Source: an uncultured Actinomycetes bacterium (GTDB lineage Bacteria > Actinomycetota > CADDZG01 > JAHWKV01). Taken from it: DNA of 64,000 nt. The stretch's first letter is position 1; each line of letters opens with the position of its first letter. A program made the position numbers and the translations under genes. The DNA lies in NCBI GenBank assembly GCA_964501265.1, contig CAZCSK010000008.1, forward strand, positions 387 through 64,386, given 5' to 3'. Positions 1,577-33,365 of this stretch are shown piece by piece. Below the pieces are notes generated by a model that saw only the letters and a program-made list of their open reading frames with translations, was not told the DNA's origin and did not search any database.

Positions 1577-2473
1577 GTGCGCGCACACCTGATAATGAAT
1601 CCCGAGGCTCGAGGGGTGACTCCGGCTCTAATCCGCGTCGTACACGCCGCGCTGGAAGCGCGTTTTAAGCTCGAAAGCGACGAGACGCACGCGCGGGAGT
1701 CCGCCACTCAAACCGCCCGCTCGGCCGCCGAATCCGGGGCAGAACTCGTGATTGCGTTCGGGGGCGATGGCTTGGTAAATGAGGTCGTCAACGGCATCGC
1801 GGGATCGGGGGCGATCCTTGGTGTCATTCCCGGTGGGACCATGAATGTTTTCGCGCGCAACATCGGCTTGTCGAGAGATCCTTTGGTCGCAACGGATTTC
1901 ATCCTTCAAGCAGCAGGCTCGCAGGCGCCGCAAGAGATCAGTCTGGCGCGCGCCAACGACCGGTTATTTACTTTTGCCTGCGGATGTGGCTTTGATGCCG
2001 AAGCGGCCCTTCGGGCAGAGTCGCACAAGGCGAGCAAACGCAGATTTGGGGAACCATATTTCTACGCATCTGCCGCAGCCGTTTTTCTGAAGTCCTACTT
2101 CGACCGGGAGCCGTATCTTCTTTGTGAGGGCCCCTTCGGTCGTCGTGATGCTGTCATGGCGATCGCTTTGAATCTGGGCGCGTATGCCTATCTCGCTGGA
2201 AGGGCTCTTCGCCTGGCGGGCAACGTTCGATCCGGCACCGAGATGGACGCTTTTATACTCCGAAGGCTCCGATATTCCCAGCTGCCGGCGTATGCGATTG
2301 GGGCGCTACTCACCGGCAGATTCGGCCGCGATGCAAAAGCGTTTCGAGCGGTCGAAGAGTTTCGAGTGACGGCGGATCTCCCGTTCGCAATACATGTCGA
2401 CGGCGAACCTCTGCCCGCGGTGGAGTCGGTTGAGATCCGTTCAGCAGCGGCGAAGGTGCACGTTGTCGCTTAA
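1577..2473 (+). CDS. Diacylglycerol-kinase-family lipid kinase (YegS/BmrU-like)
   Basis: DAGK_cat motifs: LIMNPEARG, AFGGDGLVNEVVNG, GVIPGGTMNVFARNIGL. Confidence 0.7.
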   Translation: MRAHLIMNPEARGVTPALIRVVHAALEARFKLESDETHARESATQTARSAAESGAELVIAFGGDGLVNEVVNGIAGSGAILGVIPGGTMNVFARNIGLSRDPLVATDFILQAAGSQAPQEISLARANDRLFTFACGCGFDAEAALRAESHKASKRRFGEPYFYASAAAVFLKSYFDREPYLLCEGPFGRRDAVMAIALNLGAYAYLAGRALRLAGNVRSGTEMDAFILRRLRYSQLPAYAIGALLTGRFGRDAKAFRAVEEFRVTADLPFAIHVDGEPLPAVESVEIRSAAAKVHVVA

Positions 2474-24758: not shown

Positions 24759-25148
24759 TTAGGCCGCAAGGTCAATCTCAAACCAAACCGTCGTCTCGGA
24801 GTTGTTCGTGACACCCCAACGCGAAGAGAGCTGTTCAACAACCTCCAGGCCCCAGCCGCGCGTACCTGAATCTTCGGGGGTTCTTGTGGCGGGCGTGAAT
24901 CCGTTTCCGGAGTCGGTGACCTCGGCCCGAACAACGTCCTTTCGGATGATGATCTTCACCCCTACGGTCTCACCCGGAATTAGTCCGGCGTGCCGGATGC
25001 TGTTTGTCACGACCTCACTAATCAAGAGCTTCAGATCGTCGACCGCCTCCGCAAGAATATGATCCCTAAGCCCTTCGACCAAGCCACGAGCCACCCGCAC
25101 GGACTGCGGATCGGCGGGAAGCGAGGTTTCAATCACTTTGGTTGTCAT
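24759..25148 (-). CDS. Anti-sigma-factor serine kinase (RsbW/SpoIIAB-like, HATPase_c)
   Basis: N-box LLISEVVTNSIRHAG and G1 box DSGNGF. Confidence 0.75.
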   Translation of the reverse strand: MTTKVIETSLPADPQSVRVARGLVEGLRDHILAEAVDDLKLLISEVVTNSIRHAGLIPGETVGVKIIIRKDVVRAEVTDSGNGFTPATRTPEDSGTRGWGLEVVEQLSSRWGVTNNSETTVWFEIDLAA

Positions 25149-25245
25149 AATCTATGTTCTGCCCCTTTTTCTCCGGCTCCAATCAAACTGTGACTCAATC
25201 CACCGCGAAAACGCCCAGATCAGGCGTAAAACTCCAAAAAAAACT

Positions 25246-25707
25246 TCACGGTCGGCCCTCATCCTCGAACGCGCCGATCAAGACGCCATCGGCAGCTGTC
25301 ACGATTGCAGTCTGGAAATCGTGCTTCCGCATTCGGGTACGCATGTCCTCGATCGAGACATCTGGTCGATAGGTGCTAGGCCCATCTGTCATCACATCTT
25401 CTGCTAAGGCCTCTGGAGGAGTTTCGGCCAGCGCCTCATCGCGCAGAGCACCCAGAACGACCCCATCCTCACTCACAACAAGTGCCATATCCCATCCAGC
25501 ATCGAAGGCTCGGTTTCTAACTTCGTCGACACTGTCCCCGAGTCTGCATGTTGGCACTTGGCGAACATGCCGTCCGATCCTCGGCGTTGCGGAGTCACTC
25601 CCAATGGTGGGGAGACCATGGGCCATCCAACCGGCCTTGCCAGGCACGAAGTCGTAAACGCGCTCGAACCCGAGAGTTTCAAGCCGGCACGCGGCTCGTG
25701 GACTCAA
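25246..25707 (-). CDS. Distal part of rhodanese-CBS gene: rhodanese C-terminal half plus CBS pair, following an in-frame TGA
   Basis: CRLETLGFERVYDFVPGKAGW is the end of a rhodanese fold. Two CBS motifs follow. Same frame as the upstream fragment. Confidence 0.55.
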   Translation of the reverse strand: MSPRAACRLETLGFERVYDFVPGKAGWMAHGLPTIGSDSATPRIGRHVRQVPTCRLGDSVDEVRNRAFDAGWDMALVVSEDGVVLGALRDEALAETPPEALAEDVMTDGPSTYRPDVSIEDMRTRMRKHDFQTAIVTAADGVLIGAFEDEGRP

Positions 25708-25710
25708 ATC

Positions 25711-25914
25711 TCACTGGTAGTCGAAGCAGTAGACAATCACCGGGCGCGCCTTGTCGAGAGCCTGGGCCCTCCTTGCGCTCAGATCCTTCAACGGGAGATT
25801 GACCGCGCCGGGAATGTGTTCGGCGTCAAACTCTTCCTCGCCGAGGACCTCAACGAGCAGGGCCCCCTCCTTCACGAGCCTCTGGACTTCGATGTAGTCA
25901 ATATTCGTAACCAA
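25711..25914 (-). CDS. Proximal part of rhodanese-CBS gene: rhodanese N-terminal half ending at an in-frame TGA after the active-site Cys region
   Basis: EHIPGAVNLPL...PVIVYCFDYQ then TGA. Reading resumes in the same frame 2 codons later. Confidence 0.55.
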   Translation of the reverse strand: MVTNIDYIEVQRLVKEGALLVEVLGEEEFDAEHIPGAVNLPLKDLSARRAQALDKARPVIVYCFDYQ

Positions 25915-26202
25915 TCGGACCTCCCTGGAAGCGGTCTTCCCTGAAGACTAGGCGCGGCCCCGTGTTCGCGGAAACCTGACGTTCCAATGTACGTAGCATG
26001 TGTCCCGTTGGTTGTAGACAGAAAGAGGTGTCTCGCACCCGGGAAATGAGCATTCTCGATTGACGTGGCTTGAAGGAACGAGGGGGCGCGCCGGGTTGGG
26101 TCGAGTTCCTTTCAATGTTGTCGATCTATGCATATCGCGGGTCCTCTTGAAGGATTGAGATTGTTCTACCCATTTTCGTGGAGGAAATAACGCGTGCTGC
26201 AT

Positions 26203-26228
26203 GTTTAGAGATATCGAGCCGCGGGTAA
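26203..26228 (+). promoter_or_regulatory. Candidate SigB/SigF-type promoter (GTTTAG-N14-GGGTAA)
   Basis: GTTTAGagatatcgagccgcGGGTAA, about 38 nt upstream of the ATG at 26266. Lies in an unusually AT-rich intergenic stretch. Confidence 0.45.
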
Positions 26229-26265
26229 GACAAGTTGGAGTCACCAACCGAGAAGGAGGAAAGCT

Positions 26266-26475
26266 ATGTGTGTATCGTGCGGATGTAGTACACCCGATGA
26301 CGACCACGGCGATGAAAAGCACATCGTCATGGATGAAGTAAAAAAGACCGGCGGTGCAGATCAGATTACGGAAGACCGCCTGCAGAAGGCCGCGGAAGCC
26401 GCTGGCATCACCACCGAACAAGCCAAGCAAAACGTGCGTGAGGGCCGTGAAACCGTGTCCTCACCCAACGCCTAA
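26266..26475 (+). CDS. Small acidic protein with N-terminal Cys cluster (MCVSCGCS...)
   Basis: Strong RBS GAAGGAGGAAAGCT before the ATG. 69 aa. No known family. Confidence 0.55.
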   Translation: MCVSCGCSTPDDDHGDEKHIVMDEVKKTGGADQITEDRLQKAAEAAGITTEQAKQNVREGRETVSSPNA

Positions 26476-26489
26476 AGGAGGAGAAGTAA

Positions 26490-26780
26490 ATGTCACACAT
26501 TCACGAGCCTGGTAACACGACCACAGTCGTCGAAGACTCATCCTCGTCGGCTCTGTTGATAGTAGTTGCGGTAATAGTGGGAATTGTGTTGATATGGGCC
26601 ATCTTTTTTAGCGGTTGGGTCATCGACCGCAGCCCCGACAGCGGCGTCACGAACATAGACAACACGACGGAGGGTGACACCAACGTTAACAATCCCCCCC
26701 AGCCCACTCAGCCAACTCAAACTGAACCGGCTCCAACTCAGCCGGCTCCAACTCAGCCAGCTCCGACGACGGCGCCTTAG
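26490..26780 (+). CDS. Single-pass membrane protein with Pro/Thr/Gln-rich tandem repeat tail
   Basis: Strong RBS AAAGGAGGAGAAG. TM helix LLIVVAVIVGIVLIWAIFF. The tail is PTQPTQTEPAPTQPAPTQPAPT, encoded by short tandem DNA repeats. Confidence 0.55.
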   Translation: MSHIHEPGNTTTVVEDSSSSALLIVVAVIVGIVLIWAIFFSGWVIDRSPDSGVTNIDNTTEGDTNVNNPPQPTQPTQTEPAPTQPAPTQPAPTTAP

Positions 26781-26911
26781 CGGGCGTTGCCGTCCAGAGA
26801 CAAACGCCGCCTGAGGCAGATGACTCGGGCGGCGTTTGGCCGTCCGTAACTACTTTGGCCTTCCCCCGATTTGACGGACATCCGAGATACGGGGCACCGA
26901 GATCAGCCGAT

Positions 26912-26937
26912 GTTTGGCACCGGCCGATTCTGGGCAT
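26912..26937 (+). promoter_or_regulatory. Candidate SigB/SigF-type promoter (GTTTGG-N14-GGGCAT)
   Basis: GTTTGGcaccggccgattctGGGCAT, about 38 nt upstream of the second csbD-like gene. Confidence 0.4.
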
Positions 26938-26975
26938 GAATCCATTGGAATCAATCGAACAGAATGGACATCTAG

Positions 26976-27185
26976 ATGGGCGAGAGAATCGACGAAGTCG
27001 CGGGCAGGGCCAAGGAGGCTCTAGGCGATTTGACCGATGACAAGGAACTGCAGCGCGAGGGCAAGCTCGACCGTGCAGGCGCAGACCTTAAGCGGACAAT
27101 CAACGGCATCGGCGACAAAGCTGAGGATGGAGTCGACGCAGCCAAGAGGAAAGTTGAAGACGTTCTAGAACCTCAGAGGAACTAA
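26976..27185 (+). CDS. CsbD-family general stress protein (second copy)
   Basis: 69 aa. About 60% identical to the 20245..20454 product. KELQREGKLDRAGADLKRTINGIGDKAEDG. Confidence 0.75.
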   Translation: MGERIDEVAGRAKEALGDLTDDKELQREGKLDRAGADLKRTINGIGDKAEDGVDAAKRKVEDVLEPQRN

Positions 27186-27198
27186 CACGTAGGATTCG

Positions 27199-27230
27199 AA
27201 AGCCCGCCCTTGAAGGGCGGGCTTTCTCGT
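27199..27230 (+). terminator. Rho-independent terminator
   Basis: GCCCGCCC-TTGAA-GGGCGGGC perfect 8-bp GC stem followed by TTTCTCGT. Confidence 0.75.
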
Positions 27231-27264
27231 ACGCCCGACAGAACTGTGGACCAGGAGCAATGAC

Positions 27265-28845
27265 TTGAGGAACAAATGGCGGTGGGTGGGCGTCCCCATA
27301 CTCTTGCTGCTCATGCTCTTTGCAGCCGCAGCGACCTTCTTACAAGCGGACCTGCTGGCAGCCCCGGACGTCCTATTGATCCTGGGCACATGGGTCGCGA
27401 TCGCCACGGTGATCGCTGTCGCCAAGATCGACAAGCGGTTCGTTCGGTCCCATCAACCAACTACCTGGATCGGCAGGCGTTTCGGGCGGGGACCGCGCGG
27501 CATCGCACTGACGGCGTCCATCCTGCTGACGATCGTATGTGCAATAGCGGTCTACTTGCTCGGACAGCGAGTCAGTGTTGTCACCTCAGAGATTTCGCGC
27601 TTTGACCTTCGCATCGTCGACCTCGCCCATGCCCAAGAAACCATCAACCAACGTCCGGTGATGTCTGCCCTTACCGAGATCGGCCGGGGGCGGATAACGA
27701 CGATCATGCTGGTCCTCGTAGCACTAGGTGCAATGGTCGCGGGTGCAAGACGCGCGGTGTTGTTGATGGTGGCAATTCCGGCGCTTTCGAGTATCGCAGT
27801 GACGACGCTCAAAGCATTTCACTCACGGCCGCGCCCGGCATTTGGGAGTTTGCTCGAGGCTTCTCACAGCTTTCCCAGTGGGCACAGCGCCGGAGGGCTC
27901 GCACTCGCCGCGGGAGTTTTGGTGATGGCCCGCCGGTGTGGCTTCAAACGGACGTGGTTGGCGAGCGGCATCCTGCTTCCACTTGGGCTGTCCATCGGTT
28001 ACAGCCGTGCATATCTAAGTGTTCACTGGACATCTGATGTTGTGGGAGGCTGGCTAGTGGCAGCGGCCATAACCGGGCTAGTGCTAGCGCTGTCATTGGC
28101 TCTTCCTCGTACGGCGGAAAAGTGGGAAGTCAAGCACGGATGGATCGACGCCGGTCTTGGGGCGGCCATTGTCGTGGCATTAATAGTTGGATTTGACGGC
28201 GCGCGTAACTCTTTCCCTGACTTTCCTGCAACTATTCCGGAAAAAGTCGCCGAGCTCGCGGCCGTGCTGAAGAAGCTTCCACCGACCTCCGAGACGCTTC
28301 TGGGCCGCCAGGTAGAACCGGTCAACCTGCTCCTCACCAGCGCCGAAGGGGACCTTCAGGGCACTCTGCGCGACTTGGGCTACACCCGAGCGCTCCATCT
28401 GACGCCTCTGCGCATCATTAATCCTGACCGCTCAGAAGACCTGAAGGAGCTCTCCGTATCCCGCGCTTTCCTGGATACGCGGGTCCAGGATTTCGCGATG
28501 CAAATGCCGTCGCAAAAAGGCCTCTCGCGGCATTACGCCAGATTTTGGAGGCTGCCAGTCTCGCTCCAAAACGGCTGCGACGTTTGGGCAATCAATGCAA
28601 CGTTGCGCGACAGTTCCGGTCGATTGGAGTGGCAATTAATCCCGGAATCTCACATCCGACCTAAAGTGGACGAAGAACGTGAATTTCTTACCATGAAGTT
28701 GGTTGACTCGGGACTATTTCGTTTTTCCGAGCTTCGACGTGTCCGCAACACTCAAAGCGATCGCTCTGCTGGCGGTGATCTTTTCGTTACCGACGGGAAG
28801 ATAGCACTACTCGAAACCCTCGCACCCTGCGAGACCAAGCGGTAG
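27265..28845 (+). CDS. Polytopic PAP2 phosphatase with ~250 aa C-terminal extracytoplasmic domain (LssY_C-like)
   Basis: PAP2 motifs KAFHSRPRP, PSGHS, SRAYLSVHWTSD inside an 8-TM region. Large soluble C-terminal domain. Confidence 0.65.
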   Translation: MRNKWRWVGVPILLLLMLFAAAATFLQADLLAAPDVLLILGTWVAIATVIAVAKIDKRFVRSHQPTTWIGRRFGRGPRGIALTASILLTIVCAIAVYLLGQRVSVVTSEISRFDLRIVDLAHAQETINQRPVMSALTEIGRGRITTIMLVLVALGAMVAGARRAVLLMVAIPALSSIAVTTLKAFHSRPRPAFGSLLEASHSFPSGHSAGGLALAAGVLVMARRCGFKRTWLASGILLPLGLSIGYSRAYLSVHWTSDVVGGWLVAAAITGLVLALSLALPRTAEKWEVKHGWIDAGLGAAIVVALIVGFDGARNSFPDFPATIPEKVAELAAVLKKLPPTSETLLGRQVEPVNLLLTSAEGDLQGTLRDLGYTRALHLTPLRIINPDRSEDLKELSVSRAFLDTRVQDFAMQMPSQKGLSRHYARFWRLPVSLQNGCDVWAINATLRDSSGRLEWQLIPESHIRPKVDEEREFLTMKLVDSGLFRFSELRRVRNTQSDRSAGGDLFVTDGKIALLETLAPCETKR

Positions 28846-28856
28846 CCTTAGAGGCC

Positions 28857-30332
28857 ATGCGCGAACGCAAGCGAAGACATCTTCCGAAACCGGTCCAACG
28901 TTGGGATCTTGCGATGTTTCGGCGACTATCGGGGGTCGAGTCCTCGATTCTCGACAAGACTCTTATGCCCCTAACGCATGCCGCCAATGACTCGCGACTA
29001 TGGATTGTCTTGGCGGCACTAATTGCGACATTTGGAGGAAGATTTGGCCGGCGAGCCGCTCTTCGAGGACTCATGTCACTTGCAATCACATCGGGGATCG
29101 TGAATTTGCCGGCAAAGTATCTTGCACATAGGCATCGGCCGGACGACGAGCGTCGAAGGCGGCGCCGACTGGCCATTCTTCCCGCATCTTCGTCATTCCC
29201 GTCGGGGCACTCCGCCTCCGCCGCCGCCTTTGCCACCGGTGTCGCTTTAGAGTTACCTACTCTCGCGGTGCCGGTGGGAGTGCTGGCAACCGCGACTGGG
29301 TTCTCGCGGGTCTACGCCGGCGTGCATTACCCGCTCGACGTCTTGGTTGGCGCGGCATTGGGAGTGACCGCCGCACTGACAACACGGCGGTGGTGGCCGG
29401 TGGCCCCGCGCGAGACCGCCCAGATGCGACCTACTGTCATGGCAGCAAAAACAAACCCACTCGTCGATGGCAACGGTCTCGTGATCTTTGTAAATCCTTC
29501 TGCCGGCCCAGCATTGTCACGAAACGGAACGTCCCAAATCAAGGACTTGCTTCCCAATGCAGAAGTGATCGAACTGGATGATGACGCTGACCTGGAGGAA
29601 CAGTTGACACATGCAGCCCAGCGATGCCATGCCTTGGGAGTTTGCGGCGGCGACGGTTCCATCAATTGTGGAGCGGAAGTGGCCTTGAAACACGACAAGC
29701 CATACGTGGCTATGCCAGGAGGCACTTTGAACCACCTGGCGCGCGATCTTGGGATCGCGTCTCTCGAAGACGCTGCGACGGCGGTTATCGAGGGCCAGAC
29801 CGCTGCGATGGATGTCGGCCTCATCGATGGCAAACCTTTCCTCAACACAGCAAGTGCTGGCGCTTATGTCGAACTGGTCGACGCCCGCGAGCGGCTGGAA
29901 AGCAGGATCGGCAAGTGGCCGGCGGTCATCGTTGCTCTGGTGACCGTTTTGAGTAAAGGCACACCGCTGCGCGTAGAAATCGATGGAGTGCCCAAGGTAA
30001 TCTGGATGATCTTCATCGGTAACTGCCGTTATCACCCACAGGGATTTGCACCGAGTTGGCGCGAGCGACTCGATGACGGAGATTTAGACCTGCGGATCGT
30101 GAACGGGTCGGAGCCATGGTCTAGGACCCGCTTGGTGCTGGCCGTTATGACTGGGCGGCTGGGACGCAGCCGAGTCTACGAGGCCAGGATCGCGAAACGA
30201 ATCGAGATAAGGTCAATGGAGGGTCCGCTGCGGTTGGCACGCGACGGTGAAACGTTCGATGGTTCAGACTCGTTCCTCATTGAAAAACACAAGGAACGTT
30301 TGACCGTCTATGTCCCGGGCGAGGGGACCTAG
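28857..30332 (+). CDS. Fusion protein: membrane PAP2 phosphatase + DAGK-type lipid kinase catalytic domain
   Basis: PAP2 motifs (RHRPDD, PSGHSA, SRVYAGVHYPLD), then DAGK_cat motifs (LVIFVNPSAG, GGDGSIN, PGGTLNHLARDLG). Confidence 0.7.
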   Translation: MRERKRRHLPKPVQRWDLAMFRRLSGVESSILDKTLMPLTHAANDSRLWIVLAALIATFGGRFGRRAALRGLMSLAITSGIVNLPAKYLAHRHRPDDERRRRRRLAILPASSSFPSGHSASAAAFATGVALELPTLAVPVGVLATATGFSRVYAGVHYPLDVLVGAALGVTAALTTRRWWPVAPRETAQMRPTVMAAKTNPLVDGNGLVIFVNPSAGPALSRNGTSQIKDLLPNAEVIELDDDADLEEQLTHAAQRCHALGVCGGDGSINCGAEVALKHDKPYVAMPGGTLNHLARDLGIASLEDAATAVIEGQTAAMDVGLIDGKPFLNTASAGAYVELVDARERLESRIGKWPAVIVALVTVLSKGTPLRVEIDGVPKVIWMIFIGNCRYHPQGFAPSWRERLDDGDLDLRIVNGSEPWSRTRLVLAVMTGRLGRSRVYEARIAKRIEIRSMEGPLRLARDGETFDGSDSFLIEKHKERLTVYVPGEGT

Positions 30333-30976
30333 GACTCCCGGTTCAGATACCTGCCGATGAGAAACAGCAAGCCGAACAGAACGACTACACCAACTCCGGT
30401 TATTAGCCAGGTCGTTTTGGGATCGTCCTTATTGAAAAACCCACCCAACAAGTAGCCGACCGACATCACTTCAGCGATACCCACCAGAGCGCCGATTGCA
30501 TCAGGCGGTAGAAACTGCTTCGCCTTGACTTTGGACGAGCCCGCTGCAGCCCCCACTAGCGCTGAAGGGAAGGCAGCGAGCCGACCCCAGAATACGACCC
30601 TCGAGCCTTTCTTCTTGAGCACTTTTTGCAATTTCGCTATCTTTTTCAGCGGTAAGATTCTGCCCACGATGCCAGGTAACTTCTCGCTCTTGATCTCTGT
30701 TGCATAAAGTCGGCCGAGGTAATAGAAATGCCAGACTCCCAGTATCGACAACGGGATCGCGGCCAGCACTATCTGAAGTAAAAGAGCCGAAGATTGGGTA
30801 GCCCGTGCTTTGTAGGCTCCTGCTAACAGGACTTCTTTCGTGGGCCGCATCACAACCAGCAGCAAGAAGTGGTCGGAATACAGAAACTTCGCCAGCGGAA
30901 TAGCGGCAATGCCCAGGAGGATGCGGAAACCCGCGAGCCAAAGTAAAAACGTTCGAAGGCGCGTGGACTTTTTCAC
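30329..30976 (-). CDS. DedA/VTT-family membrane protein
   Basis: Multi-TM protein with the DedA-like VVFWGRLAAFPSALVGAAAG motif. Start uncertain. Confidence 0.5.
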   Translation of the reverse strand: MKKSTRLRTFLLWLAGFRILLGIAAIPLAKFLYSDHFLLLVVMRPTKEVLLAGAYKARATQSSALLLQIVLAAIPLSILGVWHFYYLGRLYATEIKSEKLPGIVGRILPLKKIAKLQKVLKKKGSRVVFWGRLAAFPSALVGAAAGSSKVKAKQFLPPDAIGALVGIAEVMSVGYLLGGFFNKDDPKTTWLITGVGVVVLFGLLFLIGRYLNRES

Positions 30977-30996
30977 AAGTTAGCATTCTCCTTAAG

Positions 30997-31692
30997 GTGA
31001 AAAAGAGCAACCCTACAATGCTATGGGCATATTCGATCGGGGCGGGCATCGCGGTTCTGTCAGGTGTCGGCGTCGCTGTGGGATTCTTACTCAAGCGGTC
31101 GTCCTGGGGCATAGACGCATCGATAGTTCGCTCTCTGCATGAGAGATTGAGTTGCGACAACCCCTTCATCGTCGCCGCGAAGTTCATCGTGTACCTGGGC
31201 TTGCCTCCTTGGTTCTACCTGCTCATTGGGGGTACTTGTATTTACCTGGCTATCCGCAAACGCTGGGGTGAAATCGCCTACCTGTTGATCTCTTCTGTAG
31301 GGGGCGGACTTATCGACACAATCGTTAAGCGTGTCGTCGATCGTCCTCGTCCGAACGTGGGACGGCCCTGCAACTTCCAAACATTCAGTGGTGAAGGATG
31401 GAGCTTCCCATCGGGTCATTCAATGACGTCCGTGATCGTGTACGGGGCTCTGATGGTGATCTTTCTCCCACGACTAGCCCCACGCTGGCGCATCCCGGGA
31501 ATCATTCTTGCAGTCCTACTCCCACTTGCGATCGGGTTTTCCCGGCTTTCTCTAGGGGTTCACTGGGTGAGCGACATCATCGGAGGATGGCTATTGGGGG
31601 TAGCTTGGCTTGCAGTTTCGACATTCAGTTTCAAAAGGTGGGGAGAAACGCACCCTTTCGAAACAACGGCATCACCAACCCCTGGAGACTGA
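30997..31692 (+). CDS. PAP2-family lipid phosphatase (UppP/PgpB-like)
   Basis: KRVVDRPRP, PSGHS, SRLSLGVHWVSD in a 6-TM protein. Confidence 0.75.
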   Translation: MKKSNPTMLWAYSIGAGIAVLSGVGVAVGFLLKRSSWGIDASIVRSLHERLSCDNPFIVAAKFIVYLGLPPWFYLLIGGTCIYLAIRKRWGEIAYLLISSVGGGLIDTIVKRVVDRPRPNVGRPCNFQTFSGEGWSFPSGHSMTSVIVYGALMVIFLPRLAPRWRIPGIILAVLLPLAIGFSRLSLGVHWVSDIIGGWLLGVAWLAVSTFSFKRWGETHPFETTASPTPGD

Positions 31693-31812
31693 CGAGGTCT
31701 AGAACCCTGGTCTCAATTTCGCGTGCCTTTAAACGGAATACCACTTTCACCACGGAGGGTCAGCCCTGCGGGTGTGTTAAAGTAGCTCTCGATCTGCTCA
31801 ACCTTTAAGACT

Positions 31813-31883
31813 GGTCCTGAGAGGCCGGAAAGGGAGCCACATGAACACGCGCAACGCCGGATGCTCGGGCTCCGGCGTTTTTT
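31813..31883 (+). promoter_or_regulatory. PyrR-binding attenuator in pyr operon leader (binding loop + intrinsic terminator)
   Basis: GGTCCTGAGAGGCCGGAAAGGGAGCC matches the PyrR box (UCCnGAGAGGCu...). It is followed by an ACGCCGGA/TCCGGCGT hairpin and TTTTTT. Confidence 0.7.
31854..31883 (+). terminator. Attenuator terminator hairpin of pyr leader
   Basis: 8-bp GC-rich stem, 9-nt loop, and a run of 6 T. Confidence 0.7.
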
Positions 31884-31902
31884 CATTCGGGACCAATCTT
31901 TG

Positions 31903-32454
31903 ATGGGCTCCCCTCGACCGGTCGGCAACTCCAAGGTGGTGCTCGAGGTCGATGACATTACCAGGGCGATAAGGCGCATGGCCCATGAGATCATCGAGCG
32001 CAACAAGGGCTCGTTAGATCTTGCCCTCGTTGGGATTCGCAAACGTGGCGTTCCCCTCGCTCACCGCCTAGCAGCCGAAATTGAAGGCATAGAGGGTTCG
32101 ACGGTTCCTACAGGGGACCTCGACGTATCGTTCTACCGCGACGATGTCGGCATCCGCAGGCCGCAGGAAATTTTCAGCACCAACGTAAAGTTCGATCTCA
32201 ACAACATGACCGTCGTCCTGGTTGATGATGTTCTCTACACGGGCAGGACGGTGAGGGCGGCCATCGATGCCGTCGTCGACTTCGGCCGACCTCGCTATAT
32301 TCAATTGGCAGTCCTTGTAGATAGGGGCCACCGCGAGCTTCCGATCCGGGCGGACTTCATCGGAAAGAACCTTCCTACCGCGCCCGGCCAGGAAGTGAAT
32401 GTCCACCTTCAAGAGACCGACGGGGAGGATGCGGTGATAGTGGTTACGCCATGA
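31903..32454 (+). CDS. pyrR: Bifunctional pyrimidine operon regulator / uracil phosphoribosyltransferase PyrR
   Basis: PRTase motif VVLVDDVLYTGRT and PyrR family similarity. Start placed after the attenuator terminator. Confidence 0.85.
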   Translation: MGSPRPVGNSKVVLEVDDITRAIRRMAHEIIERNKGSLDLALVGIRKRGVPLAHRLAAEIEGIEGSTVPTGDLDVSFYRDDVGIRRPQEIFSTNVKFDLNNMTVVLVDDVLYTGRTVRAAIDAVVDFGRPRYIQLAVLVDRGHRELPIRADFIGKNLPTAPGQEVNVHLQETDGEDAVIVVTP

Positions 32455-33365
32455 TCAAACATCTTCTATCGATTGACCAACTTGTGGTGGAACAAATCGA
32501 GCGCGTAATGACCACTGCAGATTCCTTTCTTGAGGTCGGCGGCCGAACCATCAAGAAAGTCCCGGTTCTGCGAGGTCGGACGATTTGCAATCTATTTTAC
32601 GAACCATCAACGCGCACTCGCATCTCATTCGAGCTCGCGGCGAAACGCTTGTCGGCGGACGTCGTCAACTTCACCGCGGACGCTAAGACGTCCGTGACAA
32701 AGGGAGAATCCTTCAAGGACACGGCGTTGACGCTTCAAGCGATGGGGCTCGATGCGATCGTTGTCAGGCATTCATCGGCCGGGGCCCCCTTAAGACTGTC
32801 GCAATGGGTTGAGGCCAGCGTGATCAACGCCGGCGACGGGGCCCACGAGCACCCTACGCAAGCCCTGCTGGATGTTTACAGCATCCGAGAAAGATTCAAG
32901 ACCCTCGACGGATTGCGGATTGCACTGGTCGGCGACGTAGTTCACTCGCGCGTTGCGCGCTCGAATATTAAGGCGATGACAAAGATGGGAGCGCACGTAA
33001 CTCTCGTTGGCCCCCCGACACTCATCCCGGCATCGGCCGAAACCTGGGGCGTGGACATTTTGTCGGACATTGACCAAGTCTTGCCCAAGATTGATGTCGT
33101 CTATTTGCTCAGAGTTCAAAAGGAGCGGCAGAACGAGCAGTTGTTCCCGTCGGTTAGAGAGTATGCGGCTCTTTGGGGGCTCGACGGGCGCCGGGTTGAC
33201 TTGATGAAGCCCGAAGCTCTAATCATGCACCCAGGCCCCATGAATCGTGGCGTCGAGATCTCCTCGGACGTCGCAGACATGGACCGTTCCATCATCACGG
33301 ATCAGGTGACCAATGGGATCGCAGTACGCGCTGCCATCCTGTATCTGATGTTGGGGCAAGATTGA
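32451..33365 (+). CDS. pyrB: Aspartate carbamoyltransferase catalytic subunit
   Basis: STRTR carbamoyl-phosphate motif and HPxQ motif (HEHPTQAL). Confidence 0.9.
   Translation: MIKHLLSIDQLVVEQIERVMTTADSFLEVGGRTIKKVPVLRGRTICNLFYEPSTRTRISFELAAKRLSADVVNFTADAKTSVTKGESFKDTALTLQAMGLDAIVVRHSSAGAPLRLSQWVEASVINAGDGAHEHPTQALLDVYSIRERFKTLDGLRIALVGDVVHSRVARSNIKAMTKMGAHVTLVGPPTLIPASAETWGVDILSDIDQVLPKIDVVYLLRVQKERQNEQLFPSVREYAALWGLDGRRVDLMKPEALIMHPGPMNRGVEISSDVADMDRSIITDQVTNGIAVRAAILYLMLGQD

Follow-up and report, generated by a model that had tools for sequence, protein, structure and literature searches.

A Conserved PAP2-Kinase Fusion, PAP2 Phosphatase and DedA Variant in an Uncultured Actinomycete: A Candidate Trans-Bilayer Lipid-Phosphate Module

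Introduction

Why should a membrane phosphatase and a lipid kinase, which could undo each other's work, be joined in one polypeptide? The question is raised by a block of four genes, g1 to g4 (Table 1), in a 64,000-nucleotide stretch of DNA, hereafter called the window, from an uncultured Actinomycetes bacterium (GenBank assembly GCA_964501265.1, contig CAZCSK010000008.1). The product of g2 is a PAP2 phosphatase fused to a kinase domain of the diacylglycerol kinase type (DAGK_cat); g1 and g4 encode two further PAP2 phosphatases, and g3 encodes a membrane protein of the DedA/VTT type. [quoted passage not shown] In the following, we propose, with a probability of about 0.5, that g4, g3 and g2 form a module in which phosphatase and kinase work across the bilayer on a glycerolipid phosphate, where the pair of phosphatidic acid (PA) and diacylglycerol (DAG) is favoured as the substrate and product.

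Results

Conserved Synteny of the Fusion, DedA and PAP2 Genes

The whole four-gene block is kept in a relative with 81% identity (L081), where it lies between topA/tmk/holB and M16 peptidase genes. In a relative with 58% identity (L082), a triad of the fusion, the DedA gene on the minus strand and the PAP2 gene is found with other flanks and with no LssY gene, and the triad also occurs at L083/84 and L086/87. Starting from the g3 family, a divergent PAP2 gene was adjacent in five of five places and the fusion in four of five. A scan of metagenome contigs provided 57 further g3-family loci, for which only the evaluable loci were counted in each denominator. A g4-type PAP2 gene adjoins the g3-family DedA gene in 42 of 43 such loci and the fusion adjoins it in 26 of 36, and the full triad is present in 21 of 28. 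In three loci (L107, L110 and L114), the fusion gene is inverted and lies just after the DedA gene in the same direction, and at L138 it lies just before the DedA gene. The adjacency thus survives rearrangement, because it is kept after these inversions.

Seen from the side of the fusion, this DedA gene is present in only 4 of the 80 best genome loci and a g4-like PAP2 gene in approximately 13 of the 80, which shows that the triad characterises one subclade, whereas the fusion family as a whole is much larger. According to the literature searched, the triad with its specialised DedA appears to be an undescribed variant of the known partnership between PAP2 and DedA proteins. The initial annotation of the window had grouped all four genes into one lipid-phosphate module; conserved synteny upholds this grouping for g2, g3 and g4, whereas g1 is retained only in the closest relatives.

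Two further explanations of the arrangement were discarded. A triple fusion of DedA, PAP2 and kinase at L107, L110 and L114 was rejected, as the genes there are separate, co-directional and in different reading frames. Chance juxtaposition of the PAP2 genes is excluded by the conserved synteny, the flanks in L081 being entirely different.

Domain and Subfamily Assignment

Domains were called by Pfam with gathering cutoffs, and subfamilies by the NCBIfam equivalog cutoffs. A PAP2 domain (PF01569) was found in g1 (54.9 bits), g2 (72.9 bits) and g4 (90.6 bits). In addition, g1 carries an LssY_C domain (PF14067) at residues 337-512 (71.9 bits, cutoff 25), g2 carries DAGK_cat (57.1 bits) with a YegS_C match of 23 bits, below its cutoff, and g3 carries VTT_dom (38 bits against a cutoff of 33.9). 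The domain assignments of the initial annotation are borne out for all four genes, including that of DAGK_cat to the C-terminal region of g2, which it had singled out as decisive for its reading.

The three catalytic motifs of the PAP2 family, C1 (KxxxxxxRP), C2 (PSGH) and C3 (SRxxxxxHxxxD), are intact in all three domains, where they are located at residues 183/204/247 in g1, 87/115/150 in g2 and 111/138/182 in g4. The three cores are approximately 38% identical to each other and, judged by this divergence, are old paralogues; a recent tandem duplication is excluded by the same low identity.

The subfamily check proposed with the initial annotation confirmed membership in the PAP2 family, but no PAP2 domain of the block reaches the NCBIfam equivalog cutoff of an undecaprenyl-diphosphatase, PgpB or LpxE. 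The scores were 48.6-56.8 bits for SepP (cutoff 250), 28.7-32.3 for PRK11837 (cutoff 229), 17.9-41.3 for PgpB (cutoff 261) and 17.7 for LpxE (cutoff 177). The undecaprenyl-diphosphatase SepP is the best partial NCBIfam match for all three PAP2 domains, and the best match of the g2 kinase is PRK13057, named 'lipid kinase', at 106.8 bits, below the cutoff of 274.

Catalytic Residues, Fold and Orientation of the Fusion

In an alignment of 22 homologues of g2, with 53-81% identity, the PAP2 catalytic residues and the GGDG, GT-N and DGE motifs of the kinase are invariant. The invariant positions of the PAP2 half include K87, R94, P95, S116, G117, H118, R151, H157 and D161; those of the kinase half include G264-G267, T290, N292 and D463-E465. 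From this pattern, both halves look CATALYTICALLY competent.

In the confident AlphaFold2 (AF2) model of g2, for which the predicted local distance difference test score (pLDDT) is 82.7, the PAP2 half occupies residues ~11-178 and is connected through a linker of about 27 residues to the kinase at residues ~205-487. A Foldseek search matched the C-terminal ~300 residues to the structures of DgkB, YegS, BmrU and SphK1 with E values of ~1e-15, the kinase giving TM-scores of ~0.7 to 3t5p, 2qv7 and 2p1r, and the GGDG and DGE motifs line up with those of DgkB. The model indicates that this part is a complete kinase of the DgkB/YegS fold; DAG is a candidate substrate.

The orientation of the PAP2 half was considered on the basis of its relatives of known structure. 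With a family profile, it aligns end to end with LpxE (6ebu) over residues 15-170, and to YodM (5jki) from just after the first transmembrane helix of YodM. The LpxE of Aquifex has seven helices: the first, N-terminal and amphiphilic, lies on the periplasmic surface, alpha2 is half-penetrating, and the other five are transmembrane helices; its N-terminus and active site are periplasmic, and the first transmembrane helix of YodM is absent from it (PMC6581854). The AF2 model of g2 has helices at residues 11-25, 30-44, 47-59, 61-90, 117-132, 134-153 and 159-178, and these seven helices follow the published LpxE pattern. The last of them begins at the C3 motif and ends in RRWWP, after which come the linker and the kinase.

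The simplest reading of these results is that the phosphatase faces outward while the ATP-dependent kinase is cytoplasmic; the inward position of the kinase follows from the LpxE/YodM-like outward orientation of PAP2 together with the need of the kinase for ATP. The initial annotation had argued that the fusion would run an apparent futile cycle unless its two domains faced opposite sides of the membrane. The LpxE/YodM alignment, the seven-helix pattern and the C-terminal position of the kinase support opposite faces by homology, and nothing was found that places both domains on the same side.

Two basic segments of the PAP2 half were observed besides. In the g2 family, the N-terminal tail is long and rich in K/R, with a mean of 9 (g2 residues 1-46; window 28857-28994), and its C1-C2 loop is rich in arginine, with RRRRRR in the window (residues 87-118; window 29115-29210). 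By homology, both segments should be extracytoplasmic, which would be an unexplained breach of the positive-inside rule.

Distribution of the Fusion and Its Studied Member

The distribution of the fusion was determined by a protein search over 5.8 billion proteins, with counts taken from the matches listed, and by a genome scan with one genome per species. The PAP2-DAGK_cat fusion gave at least 4,107 protein matches and is present in at least 565 species genomes across Actinomycetota. The carriers include Streptomyces, Kitasatospora, Frankia, Nocardia, Rhodococcus, Saccharopolyspora and Amycolatopsis, as well as metagenome-assembled genomes of Acidimicrobiia, Solirubrobacterales and Nitriliruptorales. 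The top 120 homologues of g2 all combine PAP2 with DAGK_cat at 52-96% identity, and several of them bear the standard NCBI name 'bifunctional phosphatase PAP2/diacylglycerol kinase family protein'. The initial annotation had called such a fusion uncommon; these counts, the existing name and a studied member, MSMEG_0633, contradict it, and g2 is a new member of a common, already named family.

MSMEG_0633 (msPAPalpha) of Mycobacterium smegmatis combines PAP2 and DAGK_cat and adjoins the PAP2 gene MSMEG_0634 (msPAPbeta) (PMC8225852). Each of the two raised DAG 3-4-fold in an Escherichia coli dgk mutant, and in the double knockout early synthesis of triacylglycerol (TAG) under stress was lowered and biofilm formation was impaired (PMC8225852).

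As a separate observation, the fusion gene in Mycobacteriales and Pseudonocardiales lies between prcA-like (proteasome alpha-subunit-like) and pafA/pafBC-like genes (L042-L076), the carriers with these flanks including Nocardia, Rhodococcus, Saccharopolyspora, Amycolatopsis and others. The MSMEG_0633 protein was 1.7-fold lower in a pafBC mutant (PMC5656591).

The DedA Subfamily of g3

The g3 subfamily is small, with 383 homologues. Its hidden Markov model (HMM) scored 32.6 bits with YghB, 18.0 with YdjZ, 1.9 with YdjX and 0.9 with YqaA, and g3 scored 17.4 bits against the NCBIfam UptA equivalog, not reaching the cutoff of 300. For the DedA proteins of COG0586 that flip undecaprenyl phosphate (UndP), the reported criteria are acidic residues (E39 and D51 of YghB) on re-entrant helix 1, together with a pair of arginines, R130 and R136 of YghB, on re-entrant helix 2; members of COG0398 and COG1238 are without some of these residues (PMC10127716).

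Among 14 members of the g3 family, the equivalent of YghB R130 is an invariant Arg and that of R136 an invariant Ser, so that only one of the two arginines is present. The column of YghB D51 is always Lys and the one after it always E/D, and the column of E39 is D/E in 10 of the 14. The tip of re-entrant helix 1 reads invariantly R-P-T-K-E. On these grounds, g3 belongs to a COG0586-like but divergent lineage, in which one defining feature is missing; its basic tip residues suggest an anionic lipid as the substrate. A DedA 'phosphatase' report (PMC6355987) was considered and set aside as not relevant to g3, since it concerns an ESSF(F/L/I/V)P motif.

Several side observations concern DedA genes of the relatives. 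A second, different VTT/DedA gene lies ~5.5 kb upstream of the block in L081 (149-784, minus strand), beside topA. Two position-specific motifs occur upstream of the DedA gene: GTTTGCCC-N13-15-GAGCAAAAC-N6-8-ATG was found in 10 of 53 loci of relatives and GTTT-N12-16-GGGTAA in 6 of 53. Both were defined post hoc on sequences that are related, and the window has neither. The loci with motifs upstream of DedA include L093, L097, L102, L113, L116 and L083, as well as L107, L118, L120 and L123. GTTT-N12-16-GGGTAA lies inside the 5' coding region of the PAP2 gene, on the other strand, where it forces rare TTA/CTA Leu codons.

The Accessory PAP2-LssY_C Gene g1 and the Stand-Alone Phosphatase g4

The AF2 model of g1 (pLDDT 84.6) has two extra N-terminal transmembrane helices, a six-helix core of the YodM type, which superposes on 5jki with a TM-score of 0.87, and one linker transmembrane helix. 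Because this extra helix follows the PAP2 core, the LssY_C domain is predicted to be extracytoplasmic. The architecture is common to 34 aligned homologues of g1. The stand-alone phosphatase g4 matches 5jki with E 6e-14.

The LssY_C domain (g1 residues 311-526; window 28195-28842) was modelled confidently as a mixed beta/alpha domain, for which neither Foldseek nor phmmer found a relative in the PDB. Its conserved motifs, RxRHHxRxW, PTHHIxPxIDxERD and GDxFFTDG, suggest a site lined by His, Asp and Glu. Among cluster representatives, 348 contain the domain, in most cases C-terminally in PAP2 proteins of 500-715 amino acids (aa) or alone, and a literature search for LssY matched only unrelated acronyms.

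A g1 homologue lies beside the fusion only in L081/L149, which are the same contig, and in L150 (77% identical), and in none of the 80 genome loci; g1 is a lineage addition to the module, confined to the closest relatives. At L152 (689-2467 and 2984-4672), a PAP2-LssY_C homologue with ~31-39% identity to g1 was found near a gene with an AftB_C domain. The sugar donor of AftB, an arabinofuranosyltransferase, is a decaprenyl-phosphate sugar, and this neighbourhood is a single-case hint of a link to polyprenyl phosphates.

Organisation of the Locus

The four open reading frames (ORFs) and their positions (Table 1) agree with those of the initial annotation, which overlooked that g3 is on the minus strand. 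The four genes are not one operon, because g3 is convergent with g2 and divergent from g4.

Table 1. Genes and other features of the locus, in window coordinates.
Feature	Position	Strand	Length	Description
Stand-alone DAGK_cat lipid kinase	1577-2473	+		84.5 bits; YegS/Rv2252-type; no PAP2 domain
Promoter-like motif	26203-26227	+		sigmaB/sigmaF-type, GTTT-N16-GGGTA
Small ORF	26266-26475	+	69 aa	Cys/His/Asp-rich
csbD	26976-27185	+	69 aa	CsbD-family general-stress gene
Hairpin	27198-27226	+		GC-rich, terminator-like; between csbD and g1
g1	27265-28845	+	526 aa	nine-transmembrane PAP2 phosphatase with C-terminal LssY_C; accessory gene
g2	28857-30332	+	491 aa	LpxE-type five-transmembrane PAP2 fused to DgkB/YegS-type kinase
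g3	30329-30976	-	215 aa	divergent DedA/VTT-domain membrane protein
Divergent g3/g4 start region	30968-31005	.		9-bp inverted repeat CTTTTTCAC-N20-GTGAAAAAG, read directly from the sequence
g4	30997-31692	+	231 aa	stand-alone six-transmembrane PgpB/YodM-like PAP2 phosphatase

The stop codons of the convergent genes g2 and g3 share a palindromic CTAG at 30329-30332. In the relatives L081, L083 and L091, too, the two genes end close together or overlap at their 3' ends. This arrangement would imply antisense transcripts that overlap at the 3' side, or interference of each gene with the transcription of the other.

Independent gene calls on the identical public contig start g2 at M20 (28914, 472 aa) and g4 at M8 (224 aa). 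For g2, the longer form is favoured because D17 and F21 are conserved in the family and because it contains an LpxE-like helix alpha1. For g4, the ATG at 31018 is likely to be the true start, and the gap between the starts of g3 and g4 is 20-41 nt depending on the g4 start chosen. As read from the start in Table 1, g3 and g4 both open with GTG-AAA-AAG (MKK), which produces the perfect 9-bp inverted repeat across the divergent starts, and an AAGGAG Shine-Dalgarno sequence for g3 sits in the spacer of the repeat. An Rfam scan of 25000-33000 found nothing.

The Upstream Stress-Gene Neighbourhood and the Distant Kinase

The csbD gene ends 80 bp upstream of g1 and is separated from it by a perfect GC-rich hairpin, AAAGCCCGCCC-TTGAA-GGGCGGGCTTT, with a minimum free energy of −32 kcal/mol (z −5.9); none of 200 shuffled sequences folds as well. 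The hairpin probably ends the csbD transcript before g1. About 1 kb upstream of g1, the promoter-like motif GTTTAGAGATATCGAGCCGCGGGTA sits 38 nt ahead of the small Cys/His/Asp-rich ORF, the first in a series of small plus-strand genes of which csbD is the last. Motifs of this GTTT-N16-GGGTA type number 4 in the window against 0.98 expected, with none directly upstream of g1, g3 or g4, and a scan of 26400-32000 for sigma-70 promoters found nothing. Neighbours encoding sigma or anti-sigma factors, CBS or pyr genes were found neither in the 80 genome loci, at the level of BLAST, nor in the annotated contexts of relatives.

The initial annotation had connected the block to the adjacent stress-sigma island, a link that does not hold: no relative keeps the sigma neighbours, the hairpin separates csbD from g1, and no Pfam family is found in more than 2 of 97 flanking ORFs. 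It had also listed a further DAGK-family kinase as part of the picture. The DAGK_cat domain of this protein was confirmed, but its gene is 25 kb away, and no evidence of linkage to the module was found.

Discussion

Proposed Mechanism

In the mechanism that we favour, the PAP2 sites of g2 and g4 would be located at the outer face of the cytoplasmic membrane, where they would dephosphorylate an anionic lipid. The likeliest substrate would be PA or a related glycerolipid phosphate, which would be converted to DAG. This uncharged product could then flip spontaneously across the membrane, and the fused DgkB/YegS-type kinase would re-phosphorylate it on the cytoplasmic face with ATP, while the DedA protein g3 may move the charged lipid phosphate between the leaflets. 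The two phosphatases and the kinase would thereby set the PA/DAG balance or return lipid phosphate from the outer leaflet to the inner leaflet. No futile cycle would arise within one leaflet, because the phosphatase and the kinase would act on opposite leaflets. We infer the orientation from homology to LpxE and YodM and from the ATP requirement of the kinase; the substrate, the direction of flux and the role of DedA are put forward in the same conditional sense.

A glycerolipid substrate is favoured for three reasons. The sole experimental data on this architecture, those on MSMEG_0633, show DAG production; DAG is the lipid phosphorylated by DgkB and Rv2252, the bacterial DAGK_cat kinases that have been characterised; and in one context of the triad (L086), a PlsC-type acyltransferase gene lies beside the PAP2 gene.

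Several points weigh against this mechanism. LpxE, a structural relative of the PAP2 half, acts on lipid A 1-phosphate, undecaprenyl diphosphate (C55-PP) and phosphatidylglycerophosphate (PMC6581854). The DAG rise in E. coli does not fix the native substrate, because PAP2 enzymes of this structural type are promiscuous, and the kinase domain of MSMEG_0633 was noted, without an assay, in the study concerned (PMC8225852). Moreover, msPAPalpha, in which the PAP2 catalytic residues are conserved as in g2, is likened to g2 here on the level of architecture. Associations of DedA with PAP2 have been interpreted as recycling of C55-PP and undecaprenyl phosphate (C55-P) (PMC9876793; PMC10127716). The canonical orientation of g2 breaks the positive-inside rule when charges are counted, with a net +4.7 in the N-terminal tail and +6.7 in the C1-C2 loop outside, against a total of ~+6.4 inside; charge counting gave the opposite sign to the homology-based orientation and was therefore set aside as topology evidence. 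Finally, the module is autonomous and no hint of a pathway comes from its flanks, where no Pfam family occurs more than twice among 97 ORFs from 17 loci.

Alternative Explanations

The choice of substrate cannot be made from sequence alone, because PA/DAG and C55-P/undecaprenol are chemically parallel and PAP2 enzymes are promiscuous. Recycling of the carrier lipid, the main rival, which the initial annotation had also offered, can be entertained tentatively. In such a scheme, g4 and perhaps g1 would take C55-PP or decaprenyl diphosphate to the monophosphate outside the membrane and DedA would flip C55-P inward, while the fusion would provide a second, ATP-driven route, whereby its PAP2 half dephosphorylates C55-P outside, the resulting undecaprenol flips, and C55-P is made anew by the kinase inside. 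Domain fusions of DedA-PAP2 and DUF368-PAP2 are documented and have been used as evidence for C55-P recycling (PMC9876793; PMC10127716). The scheme is also in line with the g3 family scoring best with the COG0586 reference YghB (32.6 against at most 18 bits) and keeping the R130 equivalent, with SepP being the best partial match of all three PAP2 domains, with the activity of LpxE and YodM on C55-PP, and with the single PAP2-LssY_C homologue beside an AftB_C gene at L152, whose enzyme family uses a polyprenyl-phosphate sugar donor. It is weakened by the invariable Ser of the g3 family at YghB R136, which is reported to be essential in UndP flippases, and by the Lys at D51; neither the UptA equivalog (17.4 against 300 bits) nor SepP (49-57 against 250 bits), nor any other undecaprenyl-diphosphatase equivalog, reaches its cutoff. 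Experiments on a protein with this architecture indicate DAG, and no cell-wall genes recur in the flanks. The known undecaprenol kinase, DgkA, is unrelated to DAGK_cat, and we know of no DAGK_cat enzyme shown to phosphorylate polyprenols. A bolder form, which we consider unlikely, generalises the route: the triad would be an ATP-driven return path that dephosphorylates a lipid outside, lets the neutral alcohol flip and re-phosphorylates it inside, where the lipid is either a polyprenyl phosphate carrier or PA. This path would run parallel to, or be gated by, a DedA variant with an altered substrate site, and DAGK_cat would then be the first bacterial case, within its fold, of a kinase for polyprenols or some other non-canonical lipid.

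Two other explanations have still lower probabilities. That the block belongs to an envelope-stress regulon under the adjacent SigB/F-type sigma island, and remodels lipids upon stress, is decidedly improbable. The CsbD-family gene lies just upstream of g1 on the same strand, a promoter-like motif precedes the small plus-strand genes, some relatives have GTTT-N12-16-GGGTAA upstream of DedA, and the phenotype of the M. smegmatis double mutant appears under nitrogen limitation or acid stress. Against this, sigma, anti-sigma, CBS and pyr neighbours are missing from all 80 genome loci and from the annotated contexts, the −32 kcal/mol hairpin stands between csbD and g1, and the sigma genes lie over 2.8 kb off and are encoded on the other strand; in the window the motif is not directly upstream of g1, g3 or g4, and its count in relatives was made post hoc on sequences that are related. 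Least probable of all, to the point of being very hard to credit, is a switch on one side of the membrane, in which the weakly hydrophobic, Arg-rich PAP2 domain of g2 would be inverted or monotopic with a cytoplasmic active site, so that the phosphatase and kinase share an inner-leaflet PA/DAG pool, are reciprocally regulated and feed TAG synthesis. The K/R distribution favours a cytoplasmic N-terminus and cytoplasmic C1-C2 loops, only one segment exceeds a Kyte-Doolittle value of 1.5, the PAP2 half has further, lower-scoring matches to soluble class A acid phosphatases, and TAG synthesis uses cytoplasmic PA. However, inversion of a domain with five transmembrane helices would leave the kinase, which needs ATP, outside the cell; LpxE and YodM, the best relatives by structure, are integral-membrane proteins matched over the whole domain; and the last helix (159-178), followed by RRWWP, resembles a true membrane span.

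Significance

The fusion itself is already catalogued; what appears new, and is testable, is the tight, rearrangement-resistant association of a phosphatase, a kinase and a DedA variant. This variant is without one arginine reported to be essential for flipping of undecaprenyl phosphate and has defined enzymatic partners, and the subfamily is therefore a compact system in which to ask what a non-canonical DedA transports. The module also offers a way to learn the role of the kinase half in proteins of the msPAPalpha type. With PA/DAG as the substrate, the module would bear on the homeostasis of TAG and of the membrane in actinobacteria; with a polyprenyl phosphate, it would bear on the recycling of the cell-wall carrier and on antibiotics that target this pathway.

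Comparison with Known Systems

The closest known systems are msPAPalpha/msPAPbeta, with which Lpp-alpha/beta of Streptomyces coelicolor are listed (PMC8225852). As in the window, a polypeptide with PF01569 and PF00781 stands beside a stand-alone PAP2 in an actinobacterium. No DedA is reported for the mycobacterial MSMEG_0633 locus, whereas the family of the window has a triad with a specialised DedA.

Among the phosphatases of known structure, LpxE (6EBU) shares with the PAP2 half of g2 the seven-helix layout without the first transmembrane helix of YodM, and YodM (5JKI) shares its six-helix core with g1 and g4. The K-RP / PSGH / SR-H-D active site is common to LpxE, YodM, g1, g2 and g4. Neither LpxE nor YodM has a fused kinase or an LssY_C domain, and the N-terminal tail of LpxE is short, whereas that of the g2 family has ~45 residues with ~9 K/R. 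The two-lobe fold and the GGDG/GT-N/DGE motifs of the g2 kinase are those of DgkB (2QV7), YegS (2BON/2JGR) and BmrU (3T5P); these are free-standing peripheral proteins, whereas the g2 kinase is tethered to a membrane phosphatase.

With the UndP flippases of COG0586 (UptA, YghB/YqjA), g3 shares the VTT/DedA fold, the association with PAP2 and the R130 equivalent. The g3 family differs from them in having Ser at R136 and Lys at D51, and its acidic residue is shifted by one position. In the DedA-PAP2 fusion proteins, PAP2 is part of the same polypeptide, whereas in the window it is encoded by a separate, divergently transcribed gene.

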